From the NCBI GenBank assembly GCA_016196885.1, contig JACPWU010000004.1:1-32000 (forward strand): a stretch of DNA of 32,000 nucleotides. The letters run 5' to 3'. Each line of letters starts with the position of its first letter. Positions within the stretch are counted from its first letter, which is position 1. Shown here piece by piece: positions 6,823 to 19,327 of the stretch. The position numbers and the translations under genes are program-made. The stretch is from Chlamydiota bacterium. GTDB lineage: Bacteria > Auribacterota > JACPWU01. A model generated the notes under the pieces. That model was not told the DNA's origin, did no database searches, and saw only the letters and a list, made by a program, of their open reading frames with translations.

Positions 6823-8637
6823 ATGAACTCTTATCGTCCTGAAGAAAAACTTCTGATTGCTTGTACGCGCTTAGCCCGCATTTCTCATCACATTTCTGCT
6901 GCAAGCGCCGATTCCGCCTCGTCTCTCCGTGCAGACTTGGTCGGCCACGCTCAACATACTGTAAAGTATGCCTCGCATGGCCTCGGTCGTCTTCCTCGCA
7001 TCCAAGGCGGACTCAGGCGTTCCTCGCCGACGAAATTTGATGAGAAATGCGGGCTAGGCATCTTCCCGGGTCGGACCCAAGAGATCCAGACATTGCTTCA
7101 TGGTCAAATAAATTGGAATTATTTTCTCCAAATCATATTTCGACATCGACTTTCGAGCCTTGTTTATAGCGTTCTTAAAAAGTTTTTCGTTCAGGATGTG
7201 CCCGCGCCCTTTCTTGCGGAACTCTACGAGTCTTTTCAAATAGAATCCCGCAATACCCTTTTGAAGGTTCGAGAGCTCATCCCTCTCTTAAATTTATTTG
7301 AGGGACGAGGGATCCCGGCCATTCCTTACAAAGGGCCTATTTTGGCCATGGCACTTTATGGGGATATTTCACTGCGTGAATATCTGGATTTGGATATTTT
7401 AATTCGTCGAGAGGATGTCATGAAGGCCAGAGGCATTTTGACGTCTCAAGGTTACGAGCCCCGTTTTTCTCTCTCGGTCTGGCAACAGGCGTTCTTGCTT
7501 GAATATGATTGTGAGCAGTCTTTTTCAAAAGAAGGCGTTCGTGTGGATCTTCATTGGGGAACAGATCTTAAGCACCTTTCCTTCTCTCGTTTTAGCGACC
7601 AGAACTTGTGGGAGAATCTGGATGAGATAAATTTTGGAGGAAGAACCCTTCGTACTTTTTCGCCCGAAAATTTGCTTCTCATCCTTTGTTTTCATGGAGC
7701 CAAGCATGGATGGAGTTGCTTGAATTGGATTTGCGACATGGCGTGCCTCATTTGTAAACATTCTCAGATAGATTGGCAAGGGGCGTTCAGGAAGGCCAGA
7801 GAGTTGAACGGGGAGAGAATGCTTTTACTCGGGCTTTGCCTGGCTCGAGATCTCTATACAGTGGAATTACCAGATGAATTGATTCAGAGAATCGATCAAG
7901 ATCTACAGGTGTTGTCCCTGGCCAGAAGAATCAAGAAAAGGCTTTTCCAAAAACGCGATGCCTGGACAAGATTTTGGAATGATGTGATTTATCTCCGGGC
8001 CATGGAGGGACTGGGCAATCGGTTTCATCATGGTTTGAGGTATGTGATGCCCACCCCCGCCGAATGGCTCGCCATCCCACTTCCACAAATTCTTTATCCG
8101 CTTTATTATTTCTTGAGGCCCATGCGCCTTCTGGTAAAATATGTTTGTCGTTTGTTTCGAAAATCTCCAAAGTTAGATTTGTCCCTGTTTGTGCCAGCAC
8201 CTCTTTGGGTGGTGGAGAAGATGTTGGAGCTTGCCCAGGTGAAGAGCGATGATGTTGTCTATGATTTGGGCTGCGGGGATGGCCGGATGGTTGTTATGGC
8301 GGCTCAACGGTGGGGGGCTCGGGGGATAGGTGTAGATGTTGATCCTCAGCGTATCAGAGAAGCAAAGGATTACGCCCAGCGAGAAGGGGTAGAACATCTT
8401 GTCAAATTTTTGAGGCAAGATGCAAAGAAAACGCAAGTGTCTACTGCCACTCTTTTGATGCTGAACTTGCCCTCCACCGCTTATCCTAAGCTTAAGCCAT
8501 TGTTGGAACGGCTTAGATCGGGGACCCGGATTGTGACGCGCATCTTTTATCTGGATCATTTGACTCCTCTCAAACAAGAGGTATTTAAAGATGATGAAAA
8601 ATTCACCCACGTCCTTTATCTTTATGAAGTACCTTAG
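6823..8637 (+). CDS. Nucleotidyltransferase (PF14907-like) fused to a class I SAM-dependent methyltransferase; carries an in-frame 185-bp repeat element
   Basis: 604 aa. The N-terminus EEKLLIACTR...INWNYFLQIIFRHRL and YLDLDILIRRED are typical of lasso-associated nucleotidyltransferases. The C-terminus has VVYDLGCGDGRM and GIGVDVD methyltransferase motifs. Confidence 0.75.
   Translation: MNSYRPEEKLLIACTRLARISHHISAASADSASSLRADLVGHAQHTVKYASHGLGRLPRIQGGLRRSSPTKFDEKCGLGIFPGRTQEIQTLLHGQINWNYFLQIIFRHRLSSLVYSVLKKFFVQDVPAPFLAELYESFQIESRNTLLKVRELIPLLNLFEGRGIPAIPYKGPILAMALYGDISLREYLDLDILIRREDVMKARGILTSQGYEPRFSLSVWQQAFLLEYDCEQSFSKEGVRVDLHWGTDLKHLSFSRFSDQNLWENLDEINFGGRTLRTFSPENLLLILCFHGAKHGWSCLNWICDMACLICKHSQIDWQGAFRKARELNGERMLLLGLCLARDLYTVELPDELIQRIDQDLQVLSLARRIKKRLFQKRDAWTRFWNDVIYLRAMEGLGNRFHHGLRYVMPTPAEWLAIPLPQILYPLYYFLRPMRLLVKYVCRLFRKSPKLDLSLFVPAPLWVVEKMLELAQVKSDDVVYDLGCGDGRMVVMAAQRWGARGIGVDVDPQRIREAKDYAQREGVEHLVKFLRQDAKKTQVSTATLLMLNLPSTAYPKLKPLLERLRSGTRIVTRIFYLDHLTPLKQEVFKDDEKFTHVLYLYEVP
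6872..7056 (+). mobile_element. MITE-like (miniature inverted-repeat transposable element) 185-bp element, copy 1
   Basis: Perfect 19-bp TIRs tagcccgcatttctcatca / tgatgagaaatgcgggcta, with a central hairpin catact-gtaa-agtatg. A near-identical second copy lies at 14485-14669. TA occurs at both ends. Confidence 0.7.
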
Positions 8638-8694: not shown

Positions 8695-9510
8695 TTGGAA
8701 ATTCCAGAATTTTCCCTGGCCTCATTTCTTCCGGAATCAGCGGATGCAGAGATCTTCTGTGGCAAGGTCCCTGATTTGAAGCCTCATTCTAAACAACTCG
8801 TTCTCGATATTAAGGAGGTCGCTCGTTTTTTAATCACGGAGGGCAGAAAAATTATTTATGAGCCTTGTAGAAATTCTGATCAAGACACCCTTCGTTTGTT
8901 TTTACTCGGCTCTTGCATGGGGGCTCTCATGCAGCAGCGAGGTCATGTCGTGCTTCATGGGAATGCGATTTCTAGGGATGGGAAAACGTGTCAAGTGTTT
9001 GTGGGAGATCGAGGGGCAGGGAAATCAACCCTGGCGGCTTGGTACTACCAACAAGGTGCTTATGTCCTGGCCGATGACGTGTGTGCGATTGGTTTTGATC
9101 GAAATGGAAAGCCTTATGTGATTCCAAGTTTTCCACAGATAAAGTTATGGCAGAAAGGGGCAGAGCTTCTTGAAATCAACACTTCTTATCTTCGTCGCGT
9201 ACGCCCTGGGGATGATAAATTCGGACTTCCCATTCACTCTCAATATTGTGACCATCCCTTGCCCTTGACAGAAGTGATAGAAATTAAGAGCCGATCCTTC
9301 ACGCGTATCCCCCTCACTGGCACAGAAAAAATTAAAATATTGATCCAGCATAGCTATCGCTACCATTTTCTGCGTGCGATGGTATTGGAATACACTTATT
9401 CAAGAAGTTTAGCTCGTTTAGCACAGCAAGTGGATTTTGCAAAAATGGGCAGGGTCAACTTGGATTTTCTTAGCATTCCGGCGAAGAGGCCTTACGATGC
9501 AAAGTCTTAA
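8695..9510 (+). CDS. HPr-kinase-like serine kinase (lasso peptide kinase candidate)
   Basis: 271 aa from the first canonical start (TTG) with P-loop GDRGAGKST. Kinase-like N-terminal sequence continues upstream to 8653, so the start is uncertain. Confidence 0.75.
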   Translation: MEIPEFSLASFLPESADAEIFCGKVPDLKPHSKQLVLDIKEVARFLITEGRKIIYEPCRNSDQDTLRLFLLGSCMGALMQQRGHVVLHGNAISRDGKTCQVFVGDRGAGKSTLAAWYYQQGAYVLADDVCAIGFDRNGKPYVIPSFPQIKLWQKGAELLEINTSYLRRVRPGDDKFGLPIHSQYCDHPLPLTEVIEIKSRSFTRIPLTGTEKIKILIQHSYRYHFLRAMVLEYTYSRSLARLAQQVDFAKMGRVNLDFLSIPAKRPYDAKS

Positions 9511-10108
9511 TTTTTTTAGACACTGCGGTCTCTTTATTCAGGAGAATTTTTTGGATGTGCAAACCTGTGCTAAAATACAAGATGAAATGAGATCTGCTGT
9601 TGGGAAAGACGGACAGATCTACTCTCAAAGAGAACAAACTTTTGTCGTGGATCATGAGATCAGAAAAGTGAAATCATTTCAGGTTTCACAAGCGACAGAA
9701 GGGTATGTCAAAGATCGCCTTCTTAAAATTCGGCCAACCCTGGAGAATTATTTTCAGGTTCAACTGACGGGGCATCGCAGACCTGTATTTCTTTTTTACG
9801 AGAAGGGGGACTTTTATAGAGCGCATTCTGATGTGGGTGGTTTGGATTCAAAGGTTCCGCATATGGCCTCTCGCAAAATCTCCATAGTGATATTTCTGAA
9901 TGCCGAGTCGTCTCTCCCAAGTTCTGAAACCTATTGCGGGGGTGCATTGACCTTTTTTGGAATTCTGAATAATTCCAAGTGGAAGCCGTATGGATTTCCA
10001 CTCAAAGGAGAGAAAGGATTGTTGGTTGCTTTTAGGTCAGAGGAAATACACGAGGTTTTGCCTGTCACGTCAGGAGTGCGCTCGACCCTTGCGGTGTGGT
10101 TTAATTGA
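9497..10108 (+). CDS. 2OG-Fe(II) oxygenase, prolyl-4-hydroxylase-like
   Basis: ATG at 9497 with SD aagagg at 9484-9489. Shows HxD (AHSDV), a distal His (EIHEV) and Arg (RSTLAVW). Overlaps the kinase 3' end by 14 nt. Confidence 0.8.
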   Translation: MQSLNFFRHCGLFIQENFLDVQTCAKIQDEMRSAVGKDGQIYSQREQTFVVDHEIRKVKSFQVSQATEGYVKDRLLKIRPTLENYFQVQLTGHRRPVFLFYEKGDFYRAHSDVGGLDSKVPHMASRKISIVIFLNAESSLPSSETYCGGALTFFGILNNSKWKPYGFPLKGEKGLLVAFRSEEIHEVLPVTSGVRSTLAVWFN

Positions 10109-10124
10109 GAATTGGTTTTTACCA

Positions 10125-10310
10125 TCAAGAATTTGCATCGTTTGGGTAAACACCCCCGTCCACTGGGAGGCTCATCGTTCCACTCCCTGTGGAGTGGAGT
10201 TCAATTTTTTCAAGCGTAGGGGGCACCCATGGCTTTTTTTGAAGCACAGTCCCGATAGAGGTGTCTTTTCCTCCGTCCAGTTTCTGAGAGGGGAGGTGAG
10301 AGCTTTTCAT
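10125..10310 (-). CDS. Lasso peptide precursor candidate (61 aa)
   Basis: Internal ATG of the 81-aa track ORF with an aaggaa SD-like motif upstream. The leader ends KKPWVPPTLEKIELHSTG, and the proposed core is SGTMSLPVDGGVYPNDANS. Lies 19 nt downstream of B2. Confidence 0.65.
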   Translation of the reverse strand: MKSSHLPSQKLDGGKDTSIGTVLQKKPWVPPTLEKIELHSTGSGTMSLPVDGGVYPNDANS

Positions 10311-10329
10311 AGCATAGGTTCCTTTTCTT

Positions 10330-10794
10330 TTAAATTTTATTTTGATGGGAATACATTCCCACAATGACATAATTCAAATGCGGCTGAGCACCTACAACGG
10401 GAATGTTCTTATAGCATACCCAGGCATGGGCATCGTATTTTTTATGTGAGGAATCTGATTTTTTTAAACCAAGATACACAGTGCCAGATAACCTTCTTCG
10501 AGCCAGCATCCATTGGGCTGCCATGGCTTGATCCAGACATTTGCTATGCCAAGGCAGGTTACAACGCACGATATCAATACCCTTCTGAATAAGGCGAAAT
10601 GTATTCGGATCGGAGGTTGTGTCTTCTTTACGCAAGGGAGGATCTATCCTCTTAGAGCCAAGATATTTTAAAAGGATTCGGGAAGGAACAAATTGTATCA
10701 AGAGCTTGGCCAAAAAGAGATGGAAAAACGCTTCTCGACACAAGGAGCGTAACTCTGGGGACAACCGTCGATAAGTTTTAAATTTAGCTCGCAT
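10330..10794 (-). CDS. Lasso peptide leader peptidase B2 (transglutaminase-like Cys protease)
   Basis: 154 aa with SKCLDQAMAAQWMLARRR and YDAHAWV motifs (Cys/His of the catalytic triad). Overlaps the B1 gene by 11 nt. Confidence 0.85.
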   Translation of the reverse strand: MRAKFKTYRRLSPELRSLCREAFFHLFLAKLLIQFVPSRILLKYLGSKRIDPPLRKEDTTSDPNTFRLIQKGIDIVRCNLPWHSKCLDQAMAAQWMLARRRLSGTVYLGLKKSDSSHKKYDAHAWVCYKNIPVVGAQPHLNYVIVGMYSHQNKI

Positions 10795-11083
10795 GACGGG
10801 TGACCTTTAACAGATGATGTGCATTTAACATATTTAAAAAGGTTCCTGTCTCCTGCTTACACTGCTCAGGACCTATTGTATAGCACTGCGTCAATTGGCT
10901 GAGGAGATCTTGAAGGGATATGGGCTTTTCCAAAAGCTCCCAGATCTTCGTTCCTACAGGGTTCAAACCAAAATAACAACCTGAGGCTTCATCCAACATC
11001 ACGGTCTCATCATCAATTTTGGTCGTGAATAGATCGTCCCTGTGAACCAGTCTATCGCTCAGATCAAAGAGAGTGTTTCCCAT
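10784..11083 (-). CDS. PqqD-family RiPP recognition element (lasso B1)
   Basis: About 99 aa from ATG 11083 (SD aagagg), with a GTG alternative at 11107. Contains the YFGLNPVGTKIWELL PqqD-like core. Confidence 0.8.
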   Translation of the reverse strand: MGNTLFDLSDRLVHRDDLFTTKIDDETVMLDEASGCYFGLNPVGTKIWELLEKPISLQDLLSQLTQCYTIGPEQCKQETGTFLNMLNAHHLLKVTRHAS

Positions 11084-11272
11084 GATGGATTCGCCTCTTT
11101 CCTGCACTGTTTGGAATCAATGGATCAATAGGGTTGGTCACCTTTCACTTGATTCAGACCTCATTATGCCTCAACATGGGACTGTCGTCAATATTCATTT
11201 AGCATCCGCATGGGGGACTGGACAATGATGATGAAGGCCCGGTATATTTTGGTTCAATAAGAGAGGTCCAGG

Positions 11273-12607
11273 GTGAAGGTTCTTGAATTTCATGGCATAG
11301 ATCATTTAGAAACAGATTCCATCAGCAAGGCGAATCTTTTTCCGATCATTTCTCAACTAGATATTCTGAGACAAAAGGGGCATCGTTTAATCCACAAGGC
11401 GGGTTTCATCCTGGGTCAAGATTTTGTCTGTGTCAAGAGGGGATCTAAACTTGAGATAAAAAATATTTCAGGGTTGAAAGTCTGTCGTAAAGCCCATTTG
11501 CTAGAAGCCTTTCGCGCCTTCATAAAGGCCGATCGAGTGGAGCCTGGTTTTCAGGCAACCCCTGACGAGTTTCTTCTATATCTGGCTCAAAAATCCTGGC
11601 CTTTAAGGGCCTCTTTATCTCTTGTACAGGATGAGCTTTGTGGACTGTGGAAGATTGCGCTTTTGGAACGGAGCCGCATTCGAGACGCTTGTGAATATCA
11701 ATACACTTTACCGGAGTGGTTGAGGGATATGGTGATTCTTTTGCCGCCAGAACAGTTTGAAGGGAGATGGGATTCCCATCATCCGAATGTCCTTCGCAGT
11801 CGTTCTTCTATCCAGATAGGACGTTTAGGGATTCAAAAACAAAAGGTGATGGTGATGGAAACATGGATGGATTTAATTCACACCGTTGGAATTTCATCTT
11901 CCGTTTTATCTTTTCAAAATCAGGGGGATGCCCCTCCCCTTTTTCATTATCAAGGCCAGGAGGTCATGCGTCAGGCCATCTCACAATCCTTGGGTTCACC
12001 GTTAGCGGTACGTCGTTCAACAGCATCTCTCAATGTTGGTTATTGGCAAGCTCGAGAAGAGAAACCTCGTTCTTATTTTGACCCTGAGCTTAGAGAACAT
12101 TTGCGCAAAGAAGTGGATTCTCTCCTTCCGACTCAAGGCACTCTTCTTGATATAGCAAGTGGTTCTGCTCCAGTATGCTCAAGGGAAAATCGTGTAGTGA
12201 AAGGCGTTGGATTGGTTGAAAAATCTATGCGTGCCAATAAAATTTTATCTGAGTTCAAAGTTCATGACTTTAATCAAGATCCGAATATTCCTTATCGTGA
12301 AAGATTTGATGCGGCAGTGATCTCTTTTGCTGTGATGTACTTTACCTATCCTATTGAACTCTTGTGTTCTATTCGTCAGCATCTTAAAGGAGGTGGGAGG
12401 TTGGTGATGATTTTCTCAGAACTTTTTTTCGATGCCTCCGTGTCCGTTAATGCTTGGAATTTCCCTAGGGTTTACGGTTTTAGAAATCGCTGCGAGGTCA
12501 TCTTAAATTACTTCGAAAGGGCAGGAGGATTTGGGAAGGTTCATCAAAGGACGGTGAACGATCACTTTTTTATATTTTTTGCAGATGCTCAACCAGAAAT
12601 GATATAA
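11273..12607 (+). CDS. Protein with a C-terminal SAM-methyltransferase-like domain and an unassigned roughly 280-aa N-terminal region
   Basis: 444 aa with a GTG start after gagagg. Shows motif I-like LLDIASGSAP plus FDAAVISFAVMYF and GGRLVMIF. The N-terminal part matches nothing I recognise. Confidence 0.6.
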   Translation: MKVLEFHGIDHLETDSISKANLFPIISQLDILRQKGHRLIHKAGFILGQDFVCVKRGSKLEIKNISGLKVCRKAHLLEAFRAFIKADRVEPGFQATPDEFLLYLAQKSWPLRASLSLVQDELCGLWKIALLERSRIRDACEYQYTLPEWLRDMVILLPPEQFEGRWDSHHPNVLRSRSSIQIGRLGIQKQKVMVMETWMDLIHTVGISSSVLSFQNQGDAPPLFHYQGQEVMRQAISQSLGSPLAVRRSTASLNVGYWQAREEKPRSYFDPELREHLRKEVDSLLPTQGTLLDIASGSAPVCSRENRVVKGVGLVEKSMRANKILSEFKVHDFNQDPNIPYRERFDAAVISFAVMYFTYPIELLCSIRQHLKGGGRLVMIFSELFFDASVSVNAWNFPRVYGFRNRCEVILNYFERAGGFGKVHQRTVNDHFFIFFADAQPEMI

Positions 12608-14415
12608 CTGAGATAACCACACAGCCCTAGACAACGCATGTAATTCAAGCGATATTCTACAGCAATATCGTGGTTCTGTTTTTCAATAAAGGGTAAGGCC
12701 TTCCACCGACTCAGGATTTTAGAATAATCATAAAAATCCCAAACCACGGGTAAATCCTTCCATTGTTCAAGTTGCATCAGACGTTTTGAATGATGGGTGT
12801 TGTATTGTAAATACCAGTCTGCTGATTGCTCGCCCCGATAGGGATTGTGGCGGATGGCTTGAGGCACAATATCATCCAATCCTTCACGAACGAGTAATCG
12901 GCGCTCTAATTTGCCATAGCCTTTCCAATAAACCCATTTGGGAATGTTATAACAGAATTTTACAATTTCTAAATCACGCGTTGGGTCTAGCTCATGAATG
13001 CCATACCACAATGCCATCGGGGTCATGTAGCTTAACCGTGGCGTGCTTCCACGTCCTAAAAGCATCCATACATGTTCATTGAATCCAGCAGCGATTTCTT
13101 GACGCATGATCTGACGCGCCATCTTTGATTTTTTAAAAACAGGATGACATTGTTTTAAATAATCACCATATGCCGTGTAGGGCCTCAGCCAATTCTTCAA
13201 GGTCGAAAGGTTAGAACGAATGTTTCGCAAACCCTCGAAACCTCCCTTCCAAGATAGACTTGCATTTCCACCTCCCGCAGATAATAAGATGCGCCCTTCG
13301 TGGGTGAGGGTCTCATCGTATGAAGCCAGAATCCAATCAAAATGGGTCACGTTACGAACGGGCTGGTCAATGTAAGGATAGAATGTTTTTAAGAGTTCAA
13401 AAATATCTGTTTCCGGAGATGCTTGATAAGCCTTGTGTTGAATATTAGGATAAGCCTTAAGTACTTCCTTAACCAAATGCATTTCGTGATAATACCAGCC
13501 GGGATGGAAACTCGGGCCCTCCAGTCCGAGTGGAATTTCTGTAAAACCATGAAGGACTTGATTGCGTTGGGCAAGAATTTTAGCGGCCATCGATGCTACT
13601 GAACTGGAGTCGAGGCCTCCACTGATATGGGCATGAACAGGAAATGAAGTTCTTAAACAGTTGCTCACGGCCTCTTCAAACAATGAGGAAAAATCCCTGT
13701 AATAATCTTCTCTTCTCTGATGGCGAATTCTGGATCGATTGCGGGTCAATTCCCAGTAGGAGCCTAAATGTATTTGATGGTTCTTTAAGTAGAGGTCACT
13801 TGCAGGAGGAAGTTTCTCGACCTCTCGATAGCTGGTTTGAGTCAGAGGAGCCGAATCCAAAGCGAAATGTGCGAATAGATTTTCATTGATGGAGCAAGAA
13901 TCACATAAGATTCGAAAGGGACTGAAGTAATTGGCAAAGATCAAATAATGGTTTTTCTGATAAGCATAGAAACAAGGTTGATTCCCCAGCGGATCGGTCG
14001 CGATCCATAAAGATTGATGAGAGGGATCCCATATGGAAAATGAAAAATGACCTTGTAAATGATGAACGCAATCTTTATCCCATTTCTCGTAGGCAGCTAG
14101 AACGAAGGCGCAGTCAGACATGGTTTTTGATTCCGCTAAGGAAAGGCCCAGGGCTTCAAGAAGGGTATTGCGATTTGTTAAGTAGATATGGCCAACGATG
14201 AGGCAACTTGATTGACGAGACCTGTAAGGCATTAACCCTTGTGAGCATTCAGGGGTGACAAAACGTTGCGTACAAACCAGGCCCACATTTTTTTCTATGA
14301 AAACGGCTTTGTGATCTGGCTTCCATTTTGGGCTTCTAAAGGCAGTTTGAATCAGCTTGTCACGATCGATAGGCTTTTCATCTAATCGAATCATTCCACA
14401 AAATGCATTTATCAT
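12589..14415 (-). CDS. Lasso peptide cyclase C (asparagine synthetase B-like)
   Basis: 608 aa with a GATase-like N-terminal domain and PP-loop SGGLDSSSVA. Confidence 0.85.
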   Translation of the reverse strand: MINAFCGMIRLDEKPIDRDKLIQTAFRSPKWKPDHKAVFIEKNVGLVCTQRFVTPECSQGLMPYRSRQSSCLIVGHIYLTNRNTLLEALGLSLAESKTMSDCAFVLAAYEKWDKDCVHHLQGHFSFSIWDPSHQSLWIATDPLGNQPCFYAYQKNHYLIFANYFSPFRILCDSCSINENLFAHFALDSAPLTQTSYREVEKLPPASDLYLKNHQIHLGSYWELTRNRSRIRHQRREDYYRDFSSLFEEAVSNCLRTSFPVHAHISGGLDSSSVASMAAKILAQRNQVLHGFTEIPLGLEGPSFHPGWYYHEMHLVKEVLKAYPNIQHKAYQASPETDIFELLKTFYPYIDQPVRNVTHFDWILASYDETLTHEGRILLSAGGGNASLSWKGGFEGLRNIRSNLSTLKNWLRPYTAYGDYLKQCHPVFKKSKMARQIMRQEIAAGFNEHVWMLLGRGSTPRLSYMTPMALWYGIHELDPTRDLEIVKFCYNIPKWVYWKGYGKLERRLLVREGLDDIVPQAIRHNPYRGEQSADWYLQYNTHHSKRLMQLEQWKDLPVVWDFYDYSKILSRWKALPFIEKQNHDIAVEYRLNYMRCLGLCGYLSYIISG

Positions 14416-14484
14416 AAGAGATGCCGATGGAGAAAAAATGAAAGAAATTTACAGGATCGAAGTATAACATCACAGCCGTTCTCC

Positions 14485-14669
14485 TAGAGCGCATTTCTCA
14501 TCACATTTCTGCTGCTCTTCTCCGATTCCGCCTCGTCTCTCCGTGCAGACTCGGTCGGCCACGCTCAACATACTGTAAAGTATGCCTCGCATGGCACGGA
14601 GCGTCTTCCTCGCATCCAAAGCGGACTCAGGCGTTCCTCGCGACGAAATCTGATGAGAAATGCGAGCTA
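14485..14669 (+). mobile_element. MITE-like 185-bp element, copy 2
   Basis: Same length and orientation as 6872-7056, differing only in three short patches and a few point changes. TIRs tagagcgcatttctcatca / tgatgagaaatgcgagcta. Confidence 0.7.
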
Positions 14670-14696
14670 GAGGGGGTAGAAGTTCCGGGTCTGTAC

Positions 14697-14750
14697 CTCC
14701 CCCAACCCCTCCTCAACGAATAGCCCCTTTGGGGTACAAAGGAGGGGAGA
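14697..14750. repeat. C-tract/G-tract nested hairpin element
   Basis: cccctcct (14706-14713) pairs with aggagggg (14740-14747). An inner hairpin cccc-ttt-gggg lies at 14724-14734. Confidence 0.55.
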
Positions 14751-14804
14751 CTGGACTTTCATCACTCACGATGATTCTCAAAAATCATGTTTGATTAATT
14801 GAAG

Positions 14805-15197
14805 TTAAAGCTTTGTTCCAGAAAAAGACTTGGTGACCGTAACCCCATCCAAAGTGGTTTTCTGGGTTCCGGCAAAGGTCTGCCCACTCGCATCAAAGGT
14901 GAAACTCATGGAAAGGCTGAATGTTTCTCCCTCTACCGTGACGGTTTGAGCCGGGACTGTCACAGTGCTTCCTGAAACGGTTCCCGTCGTTGTAAGGGCA
15001 AGAGTTTTATCGGTGATCACCATTTGACTTCCGCTCTGACTTAAGCTCCAGAGATGGGTTTCTGAAACGCCTGCCTCTGTAAAAGTCACGTTATAATTGC
15101 CTGAAAAGTCTGCTGCGGGGCCTTCTGTATCATTGTCGCAACCCGTGATAAGGAGAGCAAAAAGGGTCATGGCTGCCCCTATTTTTGTGATTCGCAT
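14805..15197 (-). CDS. Small Thr/Ser-rich lipoprotein, function unknown
   Basis: Lipobox LLITGC follows a hydrophobic signal. ATG at 15197 has an upstream aaagga SD; the track ORF extends to a TTG at 15206. Confidence 0.6.
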   Translation of the reverse strand: MRITKIGAAMTLFALLITGCDNDTEGPAADFSGNYNVTFTEAGVSETHLWSLSQSGSQMVITDKTLALTTTGTVSGSTVTVPAQTVTVEGETFSLSMSFTFDASGQTFAGTQKTTLDGVTVTKSFSGTKL

Positions 15198-15443
15198 GTT
15201 GCTCAAATCCTTTCCCTCTTTCCCTTTTAATTTGGGAGAGCTACTCTATAATGAACAAGGAAAGAGGGTCAAGTTCATTGTGTTTCTTTGTCCGCGATCA
15301 ATTTGCGAATGATTTCTGATGCCTTTAAATGTCCTTTCTGGTTCCAGTGCCCGTCATTTTTGAAATGATACTGCAATTGTAAAGGTCAGAGTAGGCGGCG
15401 AGCCCTTTTCTGGCGGGCTAAAAGTTTACGAATATGAATCCCT

Positions 15444-17261
15444 TCAAATGCGAGGCGTTCCTTCTAATGCTTCTTTACGCGATTGCAGTTGATAAAGCTT
15501 AGCATAAATTCCTTTTTTGGAAAGCAGTGTGGAGTGTGTTCCCATTTCGACAAGTTCTCCATGATGAAGAACCAGGATGCGACTCACGCTTTTTAAGGTA
15601 GCCAGGCGATGAGCGATAATGAACACCGTGCGGTTTTGAAAAGCCTCTTTCGAAATCCGTTCAATCCATTTTTCTGTCAAGGAATCCATGTGAGCGGTGG
15701 CTTCATCCAAAATGAGAATGGAGGGATTTTGAACGAGCGTTCGAATGAAGGCAATCATTTGACGCTCACCACTGGACAGATTCGCCCCCTTTTCAAAGAT
15801 TTCCTTTTTCAAGAAAAGGGGGCCTGACTCAAAGGGAGCCCTTGCAAAATCGGGCAGGGCCTGAAAGATTTCTCGTCCTTTTTCATCCCAAAGAAAAATA
15901 TTTTCTTCCACAGTACCTGAGAAAAGAAAAGGTTCTTGCTGAATGTAACCAATCTTTTGTCGGAGCATGCGTTTATCGGAAGTTTCAGAAATGTTTTTTC
16001 CATCGATGAGAATTTCTCCTTGCTCCAGGTCATAAAATTGCATGAGAAGATGAACAAGGGTCGTTTTCCCTGCACCTGTGTACCCAACGATTCCGATTTT
16101 CTCTCCCGCCTCGATGCAAAAATTCAGATTCACCAAGACCCAAAGAGACTCTTTTTCTTGTGAATAACGAAAAGAGACATTTTGAAATTCAATGGATCCT
16201 TGTAGGGAAAGTTTTTCTATTTGAGTTTCTTGCGGACGAATTTGTTTTTCGAGCGGCCGATCCAGAAATTCAAAGATACGTTCGCAGGAGGTCATGGCCG
16301 TGAGAAAGAGATTGTATTTTTCCGTGATGTCTCGAATCGGTGAATAAAGAGAATGGAGGTAAGCCATGAATGAGACCAGCATTCCGAGTGAAATGGAATT
16401 TTTTAAAGAGAGGAAACCTCCGTACCAAATTAAAAGCAACATGGAAAGACTGCTTAAGAAAGTAATGGTGGGCTGAAAATAGGCGAAGGATTCAAGGGTC
16501 TTGATTTGGGTTCGTGTGTAATCTTTAGAAGTGCGGTCGAAAAGATCATGAAATGTTTTTTGACGGTTGAAAATTTGAATGAGACTCATGCCTGAAATAT
16601 TTTCGGCGAGCGTTGCATTCAGTTGAGAAAGGGCCTGTCGGGAATCTCGAGCCGTTTCTCGAATCCTTCGGCCAAAAAATCTTGAGAAAAAGGCCATGAT
16701 GGGAAAAACACTTACGCAAATGAGGCCCAGGGAGGGATGAAGAACCATGAGCCAAACGATGATTCCCGCAACCACACAAATATTTCCAAGCGTGACCGCC
16801 AGGCCGCTCGTGAAGAGGTCTTGGAGGCTTGAAGTGTCATTCACCAAGCGGGTGACCAGTCTCCCAATGGGATTTTGGTTAAATTCATGAAGCGGATAGA
16901 ATTGATATTGTTTCAAGAGATCCTGTCTTAGGTCATGAATCACCTCTTGACCCAATTTCGTGAAGCTCAAGTTTTGAAAATAGGTGGCGAGGGCATTGAG
17001 GGCATCAAGGGTCAAAAGGATGAATCCAAAAGGTAAGAGGAGCGCCGCTTTTTTGGGAAGGAGGGCAAGGTCCACAGCTTTTCCCAAAAGCCAGGGAATG
17101 GAAAGAGAGGCCCCCGTGGTAAAAAAAACCAATGAGAGGCTGACGATAAAAAGTTTTCGATATTTTGTGATATAAGGCCAAAGCCTTTTTGTGAAAAGTT
17201 CGAAGACTTTAAGACGGAGCCTATTTTCTGGACCAGAGTCGTCAGGATCTTGCCAGTTCAT
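15444..17261 (-). CDS. ABC exporter, fused permease/ATPase (type I exporter half-transporter)
   Basis: 605 aa with a 6-TM N-terminal half, Walker A GYTGAGKTT, signature LSSGERQ and Walker B ILILDEA. Confidence 0.9.
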   Translation of the reverse strand: MNWQDPDDSGPENRLRLKVFELFTKRLWPYITKYRKLFIVSLSLVFFTTGASLSIPWLLGKAVDLALLPKKAALLLPFGFILLTLDALNALATYFQNLSFTKLGQEVIHDLRQDLLKQYQFYPLHEFNQNPIGRLVTRLVNDTSSLQDLFTSGLAVTLGNICVVAGIIVWLMVLHPSLGLICVSVFPIMAFFSRFFGRRIRETARDSRQALSQLNATLAENISGMSLIQIFNRQKTFHDLFDRTSKDYTRTQIKTLESFAYFQPTITFLSSLSMLLLIWYGGFLSLKNSISLGMLVSFMAYLHSLYSPIRDITEKYNLFLTAMTSCERIFEFLDRPLEKQIRPQETQIEKLSLQGSIEFQNVSFRYSQEKESLWVLVNLNFCIEAGEKIGIVGYTGAGKTTLVHLLMQFYDLEQGEILIDGKNISETSDKRMLRQKIGYIQQEPFLFSGTVEENIFLWDEKGREIFQALPDFARAPFESGPLFLKKEIFEKGANLSSGERQMIAFIRTLVQNPSILILDEATAHMDSLTEKWIERISKEAFQNRTVFIIAHRLATLKSVSRILVLHHGELVEMGTHSTLLSKKGIYAKLYQLQSRKEALEGTPRI

Positions 17262-19026
17262 CTTCTATCCTTTGCAGTTCAAGAAGTTCTCGATAAAGTC
17301 CGGGCGTCTTCGCCAAATTTAGAGGCATGCCTGTTTGAATCAGCACCCCTTCTTTAAACACCAAAATTTGGTCGAAGTCCCAGAGTTTTGAAAGGCGATG
17401 GGTGATAAGAATTAAGGTTTGGTTTCGAGATAATTTTTCATGAGAGAGGTGGTGTAAGATTTCTGATTCTGTATGAGAGTCTACACTGGAGAGCGCGTCA
17501 TCTAAAATCAAAAGAGGGGCATCTACGGCCAGGGCCCGGGCCAAGGTCACCCGGGCTCTTTCACCTCCCGAAAGCGTAAGCCCTCGTTCACCCATTTTGA
17601 GGTCCAAATTCCATCGTCCCGCTTCTTTGTCCAACCCGGAACGTTTCAAAAGTTCAAAAAGCCAAACATCCCCTTTCATTTCAGGAAAGGGCCCCCCCAT
17701 TAAAATATTCCATCTCAAGGTTTCTCTGAATAGAAAAACATCTTGGGGGACAAAAGCAATTTTCTTTCTTCGTTCTTCCAGAGGAAGTTTCGAAAAATCG
17801 CTGCCTTCCCAGAAAATCATGTGGGGAGGTGTTTCATGAAGGCCCGCCAAAAGGCGAATCAACGTACTTTTGCCGGACCCGATGGTTCCAACGATGGCGG
17901 TGCGACTTCCTTTCTGAATTTGAAAGTTGATGTTTTGAAGTACAGGGCGGGATGAACCAAGATAGGTGAAAGTCAAATGACGTACTTCTAAAAAGGGAGC
18001 ATTTATCTGAGAAGGGATTGAGAATGCGTTACCCTCAGAAGTCTTATTTTCTTCTTTCTCTTGCAACACTTGGCAAATTCTCTCCAAAGAAGTTTTTCCG
18101 CGTTGATAATAGGTGACACTGAGTCCAAAGGCAGTCATGGGCCAGACGAGTTGATCGAGATAACGGGTGAAGGCCGCAAAAGTTCCGAGGCTGATGGAGC
18201 CCATGATCACGTCTTTACCGGCAAAAATCAAAAGAGAGACCAGGCCCAGTGAAACGGCCAATGTGAAAAGAGGGTCGAAAGCGGCCTGGGCGCGGGCGAG
18301 CTTTAAATTGAGACGGACGAATTCTTTTCCGATTTTTGAGAAGCGATTCAATTGTGTCCATTCTCGTGTGAAGGCCTTGATGATGCGAATCCCTTCTAAA
18401 TTTTCTTGAGAGAAGGCACAGAGTTTCGAAAATTGATTTTGAACTTTTTCAAAACGTTCGTGAATCAACTTTTCGATCCGGGTGATGATGAAAGGAACCA
18501 TGAGCATGGGGGCTAGGGAGAGGAAGGCCAATTTATAGGATAAGATAAACAGGGTGGGTGGAATGCTCATGAGAAAGAAGGTGGCATCCGCCAAGACCAG
18601 CAATCCTGGGCCCAAGGCAAAGCGGACCGCTTCGGTGTCATTGGTGGCCAAAGACATCAAATCTCCGATCGTGTTCCGATTGTAAAAAGAGGGGGGTAGC
18701 TTTTGAAGTTTAGAAAAATAATCGTCCCGGATTTTTTCCGCTACTTTAAAAGAGCCTCTCATCAGAAACATACGCCAAAAATATCGGCAAATGCTTTGGC
18801 CGATAGCGATGGTGATATAGGCCACCCCGAGCCAAAGGAAGGGAGAGAAATGTTTCTCTCCTTTTAAGGCAAGTGAGGCCCGATCAATAAATTCTTTTAA
18901 TACAAGAGGAGGGAGGATTTGTAGAAAATCCACAATAAAGAGGGTGAGAATGCCAAAGGCAAATTCTCGCTTATAGGGTTTAGCATAGTGATAAAGAGTT
19001 TTAAGTGTTTGTGAAAAAGTTATCAT
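17242..19026 (-). CDS. ABC exporter, fused permease/ATPase; probable heterodimer partner
   Basis: Start taken at ATG 19026 (MITFSQTLKTLYHYAKPYK). Walker A GTIGSGKST, signature LSGGERAR and Walker B LLILDDA. 20-nt overlap with the downstream ABC gene. Confidence 0.85.
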   Translation of the reverse strand: MITFSQTLKTLYHYAKPYKREFAFGILTLFIVDFLQILPPLVLKEFIDRASLALKGEKHFSPFLWLGVAYITIAIGQSICRYFWRMFLMRGSFKVAEKIRDDYFSKLQKLPPSFYNRNTIGDLMSLATNDTEAVRFALGPGLLVLADATFFLMSIPPTLFILSYKLAFLSLAPMLMVPFIITRIEKLIHERFEKVQNQFSKLCAFSQENLEGIRIIKAFTREWTQLNRFSKIGKEFVRLNLKLARAQAAFDPLFTLAVSLGLVSLLIFAGKDVIMGSISLGTFAAFTRYLDQLVWPMTAFGLSVTYYQRGKTSLERICQVLQEKEENKTSEGNAFSIPSQINAPFLEVRHLTFTYLGSSRPVLQNINFQIQKGSRTAIVGTIGSGKSTLIRLLAGLHETPPHMIFWEGSDFSKLPLEERRKKIAFVPQDVFLFRETLRWNILMGGPFPEMKGDVWLFELLKRSGLDKEAGRWNLDLKMGERGLTLSGGERARVTLARALAVDAPLLILDDALSSVDSHTESEILHHLSHEKLSRNQTLILITHRLSKLWDFDQILVFKEGVLIQTGMPLNLAKTPGLYRELLELQRIEDELARS

Positions 19027-19142
19027 GATTTCTAACTCCCCCAACCAGACTGTCCGAAAATTTCCCTCCCCCTTGCGACCGAGCCGGGTGCCGCAAAGCG
19101 GCCGGCGAGGAAGTGGTCGGAGCCCGTCAGGGCGCAAACCAT

Positions 19143-19327
19143 GGGGAGGGTTAGGGAGGGGGTGGATTTCTAAAATCAAATATCAAAAATCAAAAATCAA
19201 AATGACAATGTAAAATTTAAAATGTTTCTGGATTCTAAGCATATATAAAATTTTGCATTTTGGTATTTACATTTTGATTTTTGATATATTTTCCACCCTC
19301 CCCTAACCCCTCCCATCTAGGGAGGGG
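19143..19327. repeat. Large imperfect palindrome with G4-type G-tracts and AT-rich heptamer arrays
   Basis: The left arm is ggggagggttagggaggggg followed by (AAAATCA-type) x4. The right arm is TTTTGAT x2 followed by ccaccctcccctaacccctccc. The terminal hairpin is cccctccc-atcta-gggagggg. Confidence 0.75.

Follow-up and report, generated by a model that had tools for sequence, protein, structure and literature searches.

Paeninodin from Paenibacillus dendritiformis (PadeA/B1/B2/C/D/K) and pseudomycoidin from Bacillus pseudomycoides (psmC-A-K-B1-B2-N-D) are the closest described systems to the locus analyzed here. The published paeninodin precursor consists of the leader MKKQYSKPSLEVLDVHQTM and the core AGPGTSTPDAFQPDPDEDVHYDS, and its leader carries K-18, Y-15, P-12, L-10, E-9, H-4, and T-2 (PMC11594732). 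The paeninodin genes are arranged in the order C-A-B1-B2-D (construct name, PMC5067487), the cluster is without an NTP transferase (PMC6993621), and its kinase acts on the linear precursor (PMC9266682, PMC6993621). Lasso kinases need a His-Lys-Asp-Asp motif (review, PMC9266682). The C-terminal Ser of pseudomycoidin undergoes (poly)phosphorylation, followed by the PsmN-dependent addition of a hexose (PMC6993621).

Discrete lasso recognition elements (RREs) bind the leader motif [Y/W]xxPx[L/V/I/A/F/Y] (PMC13381572). In the crystal structure of the PbaB1-leader complex from Paenibacillus alginolyticus (PDB 9x90, 2026), K-18 anchors the N-terminal part of the leader, W-15, P-12, and L-10 fill two hydrophobic pockets, and E-9/V-8/L-7 extend the sheet (PMC13381572). 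A Gly of the PbaB1 G42 type is the RRE signature of Bacillota paeninodins and helps to exclude noncognate Tyr-type leaders (PMC13381572); paeninodins are described as Bacillota restricted in the same 2026 paper (PMC13381572). Clusters for linear polyphosphorylated peptides (LPPs), for their part, have signal peptidase I in place of B2 and the cyclase and a YxxPxVLxHQxIxFETxxS leader (PMC13381572). Within the searchable literature, we found no reports of lasso peptides in Chlamydiae.

The stretch of DNA that we analyzed, hereafter the window, is 32,000 nucleotides long and belongs to a contig assigned by GenBank to a Chlamydiae MAG. Its B1, B2, C, K, NTP transferase, and ABC genes all lie within 12 kb, and the following features are central to our argument.

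6823-8637, plus strand: NTP_transf_5 nucleotidyltransferase fused to a C-terminal SAM methyltransferase, here N-MT (Pfam PF14907, E value of 2.5e-59)
8695-9510, plus strand: K, HprK-like peptide kinase (40-59% identity to homologues)
9437-10108, plus strand: 2OG-Fe(II) oxygenase (Pfam PF13640), overlapping the end of K and converging on A with a 16-nt gap
10125-10310, minus strand: precursor gene A, 61 codons plus stop (leader MKSSHLPSQKLDGGKDTSIGTVLQKKPWVPPTLEKIELHSTG, core SGTMSLPVDGGVYPNDANS)
10330-10794, minus strand: B2 leader peptidase, a transglutaminase-like Cys protease (Pfam PF13471, Transglut_core3)
10784-11107, minus strand: B1, PqqD-type RiPP recognition element (Pfam PF05402), with an 11-nt overlap with the B2 start
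11273-12607, plus strand: 444-aa protein with a C-terminal class I methyltransferase domain (weak Pfam methyltransferase matches)
12589-14415, minus strand: C, lasso macrolactam cyclase, Asn-synthetase-like (Pfam GATase_7 plus Asn_synthase)
15444-17261 and 17242-19179, minus strand: two ABC transporter genes, the first matching Pfam ABC_membrane plus ABC_tran

On the basis of its sequence and setting, we consider it highly probable that the open reading frame (ORF) at 10125-10310 on the minus strand encodes the precursor, A, of a class II lasso peptide in a split-B kinase/nucleotidyltransferase cluster like those of paeninodin and pseudomycoidin. An earlier reading made from the nucleotide sequence without database searches (the sequence-only reading) had proposed a lasso precursor with a paeninodin-type leader, and this proposal is supported by a family profile, pairwise alignments, the register of the leader, related loci, and intact B1, B2, C, and K genes. 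With paeninodin, the cluster shares the split B1/B2, the cyclase, the ABC exporter, and the HprK-like kinase; with pseudomycoidin, it shares the combination of a kinase and an uncharacterized NTP transferase. It differs from paeninodin in its order, C...B1-B2-A, in its extra tailoring genes, and in its chlamydial host.

The precursor gene itself can be resolved into the following elements.

10319-10324, minus strand: Shine-Dalgarno-like AAGGAA, 8 nt before the ATG, read directly
10185-10310, minus strand: leader, 42 aa with the ATG start (start chosen on the basis of AAGGAA spacing and gene calls)
10212-10229, minus strand: WVPPTL (residues 28-33), the [Y/W]xxPx[L/V/I..] motif containing W-15/P-12/L-10, in the same register as in PbaA
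10128-10184, minus strand: core peptide, 19 aa (S1; D9 codon at 10158-10160; S19 codon at 10128-10130)

According to the sequence-only reading, the gene starts at an ATG inside an 81-aa ORF that overlaps the 3' end of B2, and the coordinates agree: the 81-aa ORF (10125-10370, minus strand) shares 41 nt with the 3' end of the B2 ORF, its in-frame ATG at 10310 lies 19 nt beyond the B2 stop and is preceded at 8 nt by AAGGAA, and the 61-aa translation is identical to the one given in that reading. The gene had also been called hidden, which it is not. GenBank contains a coding sequence with the identical 61-aa product, "hypothetical protein HYS08_06550 [Chlamydiae bacterium]", and gene callers predicted the same peptide on two independent Logan contigs (two sequencing runs). 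What can now be assigned to this previously hypothetical protein is a function, very probably that of a lasso precursor. When the 61-aa peptide was used as the query of a word-indexed homologue search, the self-match was the sole result and no close orthologue emerged, and none of the curated NCBIfam precursor models recognizes the peptide.

We give a very small probability to the view that the ORF encodes a lasso precursor whose details differ from those above, with translation beginning from ATG 10370 (81 aa) or from the GTG codon of Val22, a plug residue other than Y13, or modifications on Pro, Asp, or Asn and not only on Ser19. The 81-aa ORF is indeed open, the GTG (6 residues before W28) would give a 21-aa leader that is short like the 19-aa leader of paeninodin and retains the same recognition motif, and the cluster contains an oxygenase and two methyltransferase domains. 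However, the AAGGAA spacing favors ATG 10310, three independent gene calls chose that start, and the motif, the cleavage site, and the core are identical under every start option.

Counted back from the predicted cut (T41-G42 before S43), the leader carries K-18, W-15, P-12, L-10, E-9, K-8, I-7, H-4, and T-2, with the motif bound by discrete RREs present as WVPPTL. Thr41, at position -2, is aligned by the profile described below to the conserved Thr of the family and stands 13 residues past the Trp, as it does in 19 of 26 W-type relatives, in agreement with the Thr placed at -2 before S1 by the sequence-only reading. K-18, an aromatic residue at -15, P-12, L-10, E-9, H-4, and T-2 are shared with paeninodin. 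That reading gave the paeninodin leader as KKEWQEPTIEVLDINQTM, which is wrong, as the published leader has Tyr and not Trp, but the spacing argument built on it holds residue for residue. The two precursors differ in that paeninodin combines Tyr-15 and a leader of 19 aa with Ala1 and a core of 23 aa, whereas the window peptide combines Trp-15 and a leader of 42 aa with Ser1 and a core of 19 aa. With PbaA, the partner of PbaB1, the window leader has K-18, W-15, P-12, L-10, and E-9 in common.

PbaB1 (9x90_B) is also the best solved relative of the window B1, for which gene callers used an ATG start giving 99 aa, and the alignment of the two is gap free. Among the PbaB1 pocket residues, I48, L65, Y69, F83, L87, and L92 are kept, and I44 and V71 are replaced by V and I, respectively. 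Asn49 stands in place of PbaB1 Gly42 and Glu86 in place of Gln79, a difference from the Bacillota paeninodin RRE in which, as judged from sequence, the window B1 resembles the less selective RREs of other phyla. Against the NCBIfam model lasso_PqqD_Bac, B1 scores 65.9 bits, under the cut-off of 80. Set against the RRE-Gly and host criteria of the Bacillota paeninodin subfamily (PMC13381572), the window thus presents an Asn and a chlamydial host.

As the peptide has no close orthologue, the comparison with relatives was built from the kinase instead. An alignment of kinase homologues was used to retrieve 80 genome loci and 80 metagenome loci, most of which also encode B1, B2, and/or C. A regex scan (lazy pattern) for small ORFs beside the kinase-associated lasso genes, the two precursors of locus L011 included, revealed a family with a basic patch, a [W/Y]xxPx[L/I/V/F/M] motif, a Thr two residues ahead of a small or polar residue, an Asp or Glu 8 or 9 residues further on, and usually a terminal Ser. 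A profile built from 27 precursor-like ORFs of other organisms, none of them from the window, was then run over the six frames of the window, which contain 971 stop-to-stop segments of 20 aa or more. The profile matched the candidate alone (E value of 5.5e-7, 25 bits; runner-up E value of 1.8), and it gave 27.7 bits for the characterized paeninodin precursor and 26.1 bits for the window peptide. As the profile seeds were picked by a regex that requires a terminal Ser and that the candidate also satisfies, this test is supportive but not fully independent. In local alignment, the window peptide and PadeA scored 45 compared with 21.3 +/- 4.1 for shuffles, a score reached by 0 of 2,000 shuffles; alignments with the precursors of loci L011, L051, L003, L037, and L166 were reached by 1 to 10 of 2,000. 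Aligning the precursor to those of kinase-associated clusters, a check suggested along with the sequence-only reading, therefore favored it, the pairwise scores lying above nearly all shuffles.

These results leave barely any weight to the idea that chance alone keeps this frame open in the spacer between B2 and the oxygenase, with the true precursor elsewhere or the cluster a decaying remnant. In favor of this idea, the ORF is short, no orthologue of it was detected, a sister chlamydial locus looks degraded, and dispersed repeats flank the cluster; yet the ORF is the sole profile match among the 971 segments, its Shine-Dalgarno sequence, ATG, WxxPxL motif, T-2, D9, and terminal Ser stand in the exact register of the family, the profile search yielded no other precursor candidate in the 32-kb window, and the biosynthetic ORFs are full length with their catalytic residues intact.

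Turning to the core, cleavage past T-2/G-1 is predicted to yield SGTMSLPVDGGVYPNDANS. In W-type relatives of the same register, the acidic acceptor residue (Asp or Glu) occupies core position 8 in 9 cases and core position 9 in 8, and the core opens with G in 5 cases, S in 4, T in 3, and N in 3, with A also occurring; cores starting with SG and carrying E9 were found in loci L037 and L046. The pairing of S1 with D9 in the acceptor position, as put forward in the sequence-only reading, fits this pattern. Paeninodin has a 9-residue ring closed on Asp9, a Gly2, and a C-terminal Ser, and the window peptide has the same arrangement, its ring being predicted only. The window peptide ends in ...DANS, and a terminal Ser is found in about 18 of the 23 W-type ORFs located close to lasso genes (a hand count from a regex list without the Ser requirement) and in 6 of 7 W-type profile matches outside the seed set, compared with a background of 8.9%. 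The C-terminal Ser can accordingly be upheld as a family feature that is strongly enriched among the relatives.

The sequence-only reading regarded the position of A after B2 as unusual, which was overstated. Gene order is highly variable among the kinase loci (B1-B2-C-A, A-B1-B2-C, K-C-A with convergent B1-B2, and A-B2), and locus L166 has a WxxPxL ORF directly past B2. In the window, the order is C...B1-B2-A, with three plus-strand genes (N-MT, K, and the oxygenase) converging on A. L166, an 842-nt contig, contains the closest relative of the window B2 (56% identity), and 17 nt past this B2, on the same strand, lies an ORF preceded by a Shine-Dalgarno sequence that reads PWILPQL...ET and ends at the contig end. 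Its alignment score with the window peptide was reached by 5 of 2,000 shuffles, and its match to the profile is weak (E value of 1.9). A small ORF past B2, the conservation of which in relatives the sequence-only reading had made a touchstone, is hence present in L166, with thin support.

Other relatives were considered as sources of an orthologous precursor or of the same arrangement and were set aside. In locus L083, from the second Chlamydiae MAG (HYS07), a 79-aa ORF in the neighborhood is unrelated to the window peptide, so that L083 provides no synteny support. The L083 region 10001-15581 contains K, B2, B1, and an ABC gene and is interrupted by DUF6922 and AAA_14/DUF4143 genes; neither a cyclase nor a recognizable precursor was found within 10 kb, and the locus looks rearranged or decaying. 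In L167 (B2 55% identical), K converges directly on B2 with no A between them. L171 (B2 42% identical) has an ORF with WNAPTL upstream of B1, but its core is without an acidic residue and the locus is without a cyclase.

The enzymes that would act on the precursor appear to be complete. B2 scores 69 bits against NCBIfam NF033537 (lasso_biosyn_B2; cut-off of 33), its C86 and H123 are invariant in 58 of 58 homologues, and GenBank annotates its gene as encoding a lasso B2 protein. C scores 234 bits against NCBIfam NF033535, under the cut-off of 525, and is full length, with the PP-loop SGGLDS intact in the translation. The presence of B2 and C led us to rule out an LPP-type linear peptide as the primary reading: of the LPP characters, the window has neither the leader motif, its leader carrying Trp, nor the replacement of B2 and the cyclase, and no signal peptidase I was found among the ten cluster ORFs scanned against Pfam.

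The presence of a cyclase has to be weighed against its position. A, B1, and B2 form a unit without C, which lies in a separate transcription unit behind a gene on the opposite strand. A genuine RiPP precursor might then give a mature product that is linear, freed of its leader and itself phosphorylated or glycosylated but uncyclized, comparable to the Bacillota LPPs and to cyclase-less kinase/B1/B2 clusters. Such clusters occur among the relatives: of the 52 kinase loci flanked by 7 kb or more on each side, 21 had no detectable cyclase, and 11 of these 21 keep B1 and B2; one of them, L051, has a clear W-type precursor beside B2. C is also missing from L083, the second chlamydial locus, where K, B2, and B1 are present. 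Against a linear product in the window stand a cyclase that is full length, contains GATase and Asn-synthase domains, and retains its PP-loop; a core Asp exactly at position 9 behind T-2; and the missing LPP hallmarks (signal peptidase I and the YxxPxVLxHQxIxFETxxS leader). We regard such a product as improbable. Cyclase-less kinase loci include L013-L017, L023, L035, L043, L051, L069, L083, L119, L144, and L148, and they may represent linear phosphopeptide pathways that use B2 instead of signal peptidase I.

For the window cluster, we thus retain the reading as a lasso pathway, to which several tailoring genes would contribute. Of 42 homologues of K, 22 match PF07475 (Hpr_kinase_C), and H88, K110, D127, and D128 are invariant across the 42. 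These residues correspond to the His-Lys-Asp-Asp motif of lasso kinases, the pair D127/D128 being equivalent to D158/D159 of PsmK from pseudomycoidin. The window K itself has no Pfam match and only a weak TIGR04352 match, and no solved structure was detectable by sequence for either K or B2.

The window departs from pseudomycoidin in the fusion of its NTP transferase to a methyltransferase domain and in two further tailoring genes, which encode a 2OG oxygenase and a second methyltransferase. We infer that the NTP_transf_5 family includes PsmN, to which the window protein would be related at the level of Pfam PF14907 (E value of 2.5e-59). The fused protein has methyltransferase domains at residues 460-600 (Pfam) and a DLD motif, and it scores 104 bits, under the cut-off, against an NCBIfam protein-lysine methyltransferase-like model. 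Its methyltransferase part was matched in 1 of 67 other NTP-transferase loci (the short contig L135). As a repeat copy lies inside the 5' 235 nt of the 604-aa N-MT ORF, the true start of N-MT is uncertain.

The oxygenase has a homologue in one other kinase locus only, L080. Canucin A biosynthesis involves CanE, an Fe/2OG hydroxylase that acts on the leader-bearing lasso precursor with the assistance of B1, and the window likewise encodes an Fe/2OG oxygenase; the window enzyme, comparable to CanE in its general enzyme class, belongs to PF13640 (prolyl-hydroxylase-like, PiuC/YbiX-like). The gene for the 444-aa protein is divergent from B1, converges on C, and separates C from B1-B2-A. In an exhaustive search, residues ~255 to 435 of this protein matched methyltransferase domains, some of them within proteins of 2,800 to 6,900 aa, and its N-terminal 250 aa are an orphan region with almost no relatives among 1.8 billion representatives; no homologue of the protein was found in any other retrieved locus. 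The ABC transporter pair at 15444-19179 is likely an exporter, and ABC genes adjoin most of the related clusters.

Taken together, these features allow us to propose a pathway. B1, B2, and A would be cotranscribed: B1 shares 11 nt with B2, and A follows 19 nt past the B2 stop with its own Shine-Dalgarno sequence. The 42-aa leader is predicted to dock on the B1 RRE via W-15, P-12, and L-10, with E-9, K-8, and I-7 extending the B1 beta-sheet. Before leader removal, the side chain of Ser19 would be phosphorylated by the HprK-like kinase, after which the NTP_transf_5 domain may decorate the Ser19 phosphate further, as PsmN does with hexose; this sequence of phosphorylation and NTP-transferase step follows the order of events in paeninodin and pseudomycoidin. 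Hydroxylation by the 2OG oxygenase and methylation by the two methyltransferase domains may also take place. B2 (Cys86/His123) would then cleave past T-2/G-1, and C would join the Ser1 amine to the Asp9 side chain round the threaded tail, giving a predicted product with a 9-residue ring and a 10-residue tail, GGVYPNDANS, which the adjacent ABC transporters would export.

The cluster is set among repeats. A ~187-nt element with terminal inverted repeats of 26 to 37 nt (TAGnnCGCATTTCTCATCACATTTC) is present at 6872-7058 and 14485-14670 of the window; the two copies are in direct orientation, are about 92-94% identical, and bracket a 7.6-kb lasso core extending from N-MT to C, with the ABC transporters outside. 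A third copy (92%) occurs in the second Chlamydiae MAG (L083 1951-2132), and both ends of the 7.5-kb Logan contig L001 fall within the repeat. The element looks MITE-like and has no match in Rfam. The GC content is uniform (42-47%), and a scan of it gave no island signature. At 49-137 on the plus strand, the window matches the Rfam group II intron model RF00029 over 77 positions with 40 bits, which equals the gathering score.

Some possible RNA signals were also observed. At 10177-10200, inside A at the codons of the leader/core junction, there is a GC-rich hairpin of 9 to 10 bp. On the plus strand, where it lies ~70 nt past the oxygenase stop, a T-run comes after it, so that it looks like a terminator of the convergent operon; on the minus strand, i.e., in the A mRNA, it has a folding energy of -16.6 kcal/mol (z = -3.3). 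In the divergent spacer between B1 and the 444-aa gene (11163-11248), two promoter-like sites stand back to back: a minus-strand site ahead of B1 (TTGACG-17-CATAAT) and a plus-strand site ahead of the 444-aa gene (TGGACA-18-TATATT). In a promoter and terminator scan, counts were not above those of shuffles.

The closest relative of the window kinase comes from the second Chlamydiae MAG (57% identity), and the next ones come mostly from Gammaproteobacteria and Legionellales. The kinase relatives in genome loci L004-L024 derive mostly from Legionellales/Legionellaceae MAGs and also from Pseudobdellovibrionaceae and Marinamargulisbacteria MAGs. W-type leaders ending in Ser occur beside kinase genes outside the Bacillota, in Legionellales, other Gammaproteobacteria, Chloroflexota, Campylobacterota, and others. 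Amoeba symbionts have been reported to carry lasso clusters (PMC8831229), and an exchange of such clusters among protist-associated bacteria is possible. A bolder reading, which we hold to be unlikely, is that the cluster makes an undescribed combination of modifications, with Ser19 phosphorylated and decorated by the NTP transferase-methyltransferase, a hydroxyl group added by the prolyl-hydroxylase-like 2OG oxygenase, and a second methyl group added by the orphan methyltransferase; and that, given a 7.6-kb segment bracketed by MITE-like elements in an environmental chlamydia and the closest kinase relatives in Legionellales MAGs, the peptide might be a factor exchanged horizontally among protist-associated bacteria and directed at hosts or competitors and not a conventional antibiotic.

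Very probably, the window cluster represents a known kind of system, in which the host phylum, the long leader, the additional tailoring genes, and the combination of a W-type leader with an Asn-type RRE are new. It leaves the understanding of lasso biosynthesis unchanged. The precursor gene completes a lasso cluster in Chlamydiae, and the enzyme set encoded around it provides a natural test case for PsmN-like attachment to phosphoserine and for the purpose of modified lasso peptides.
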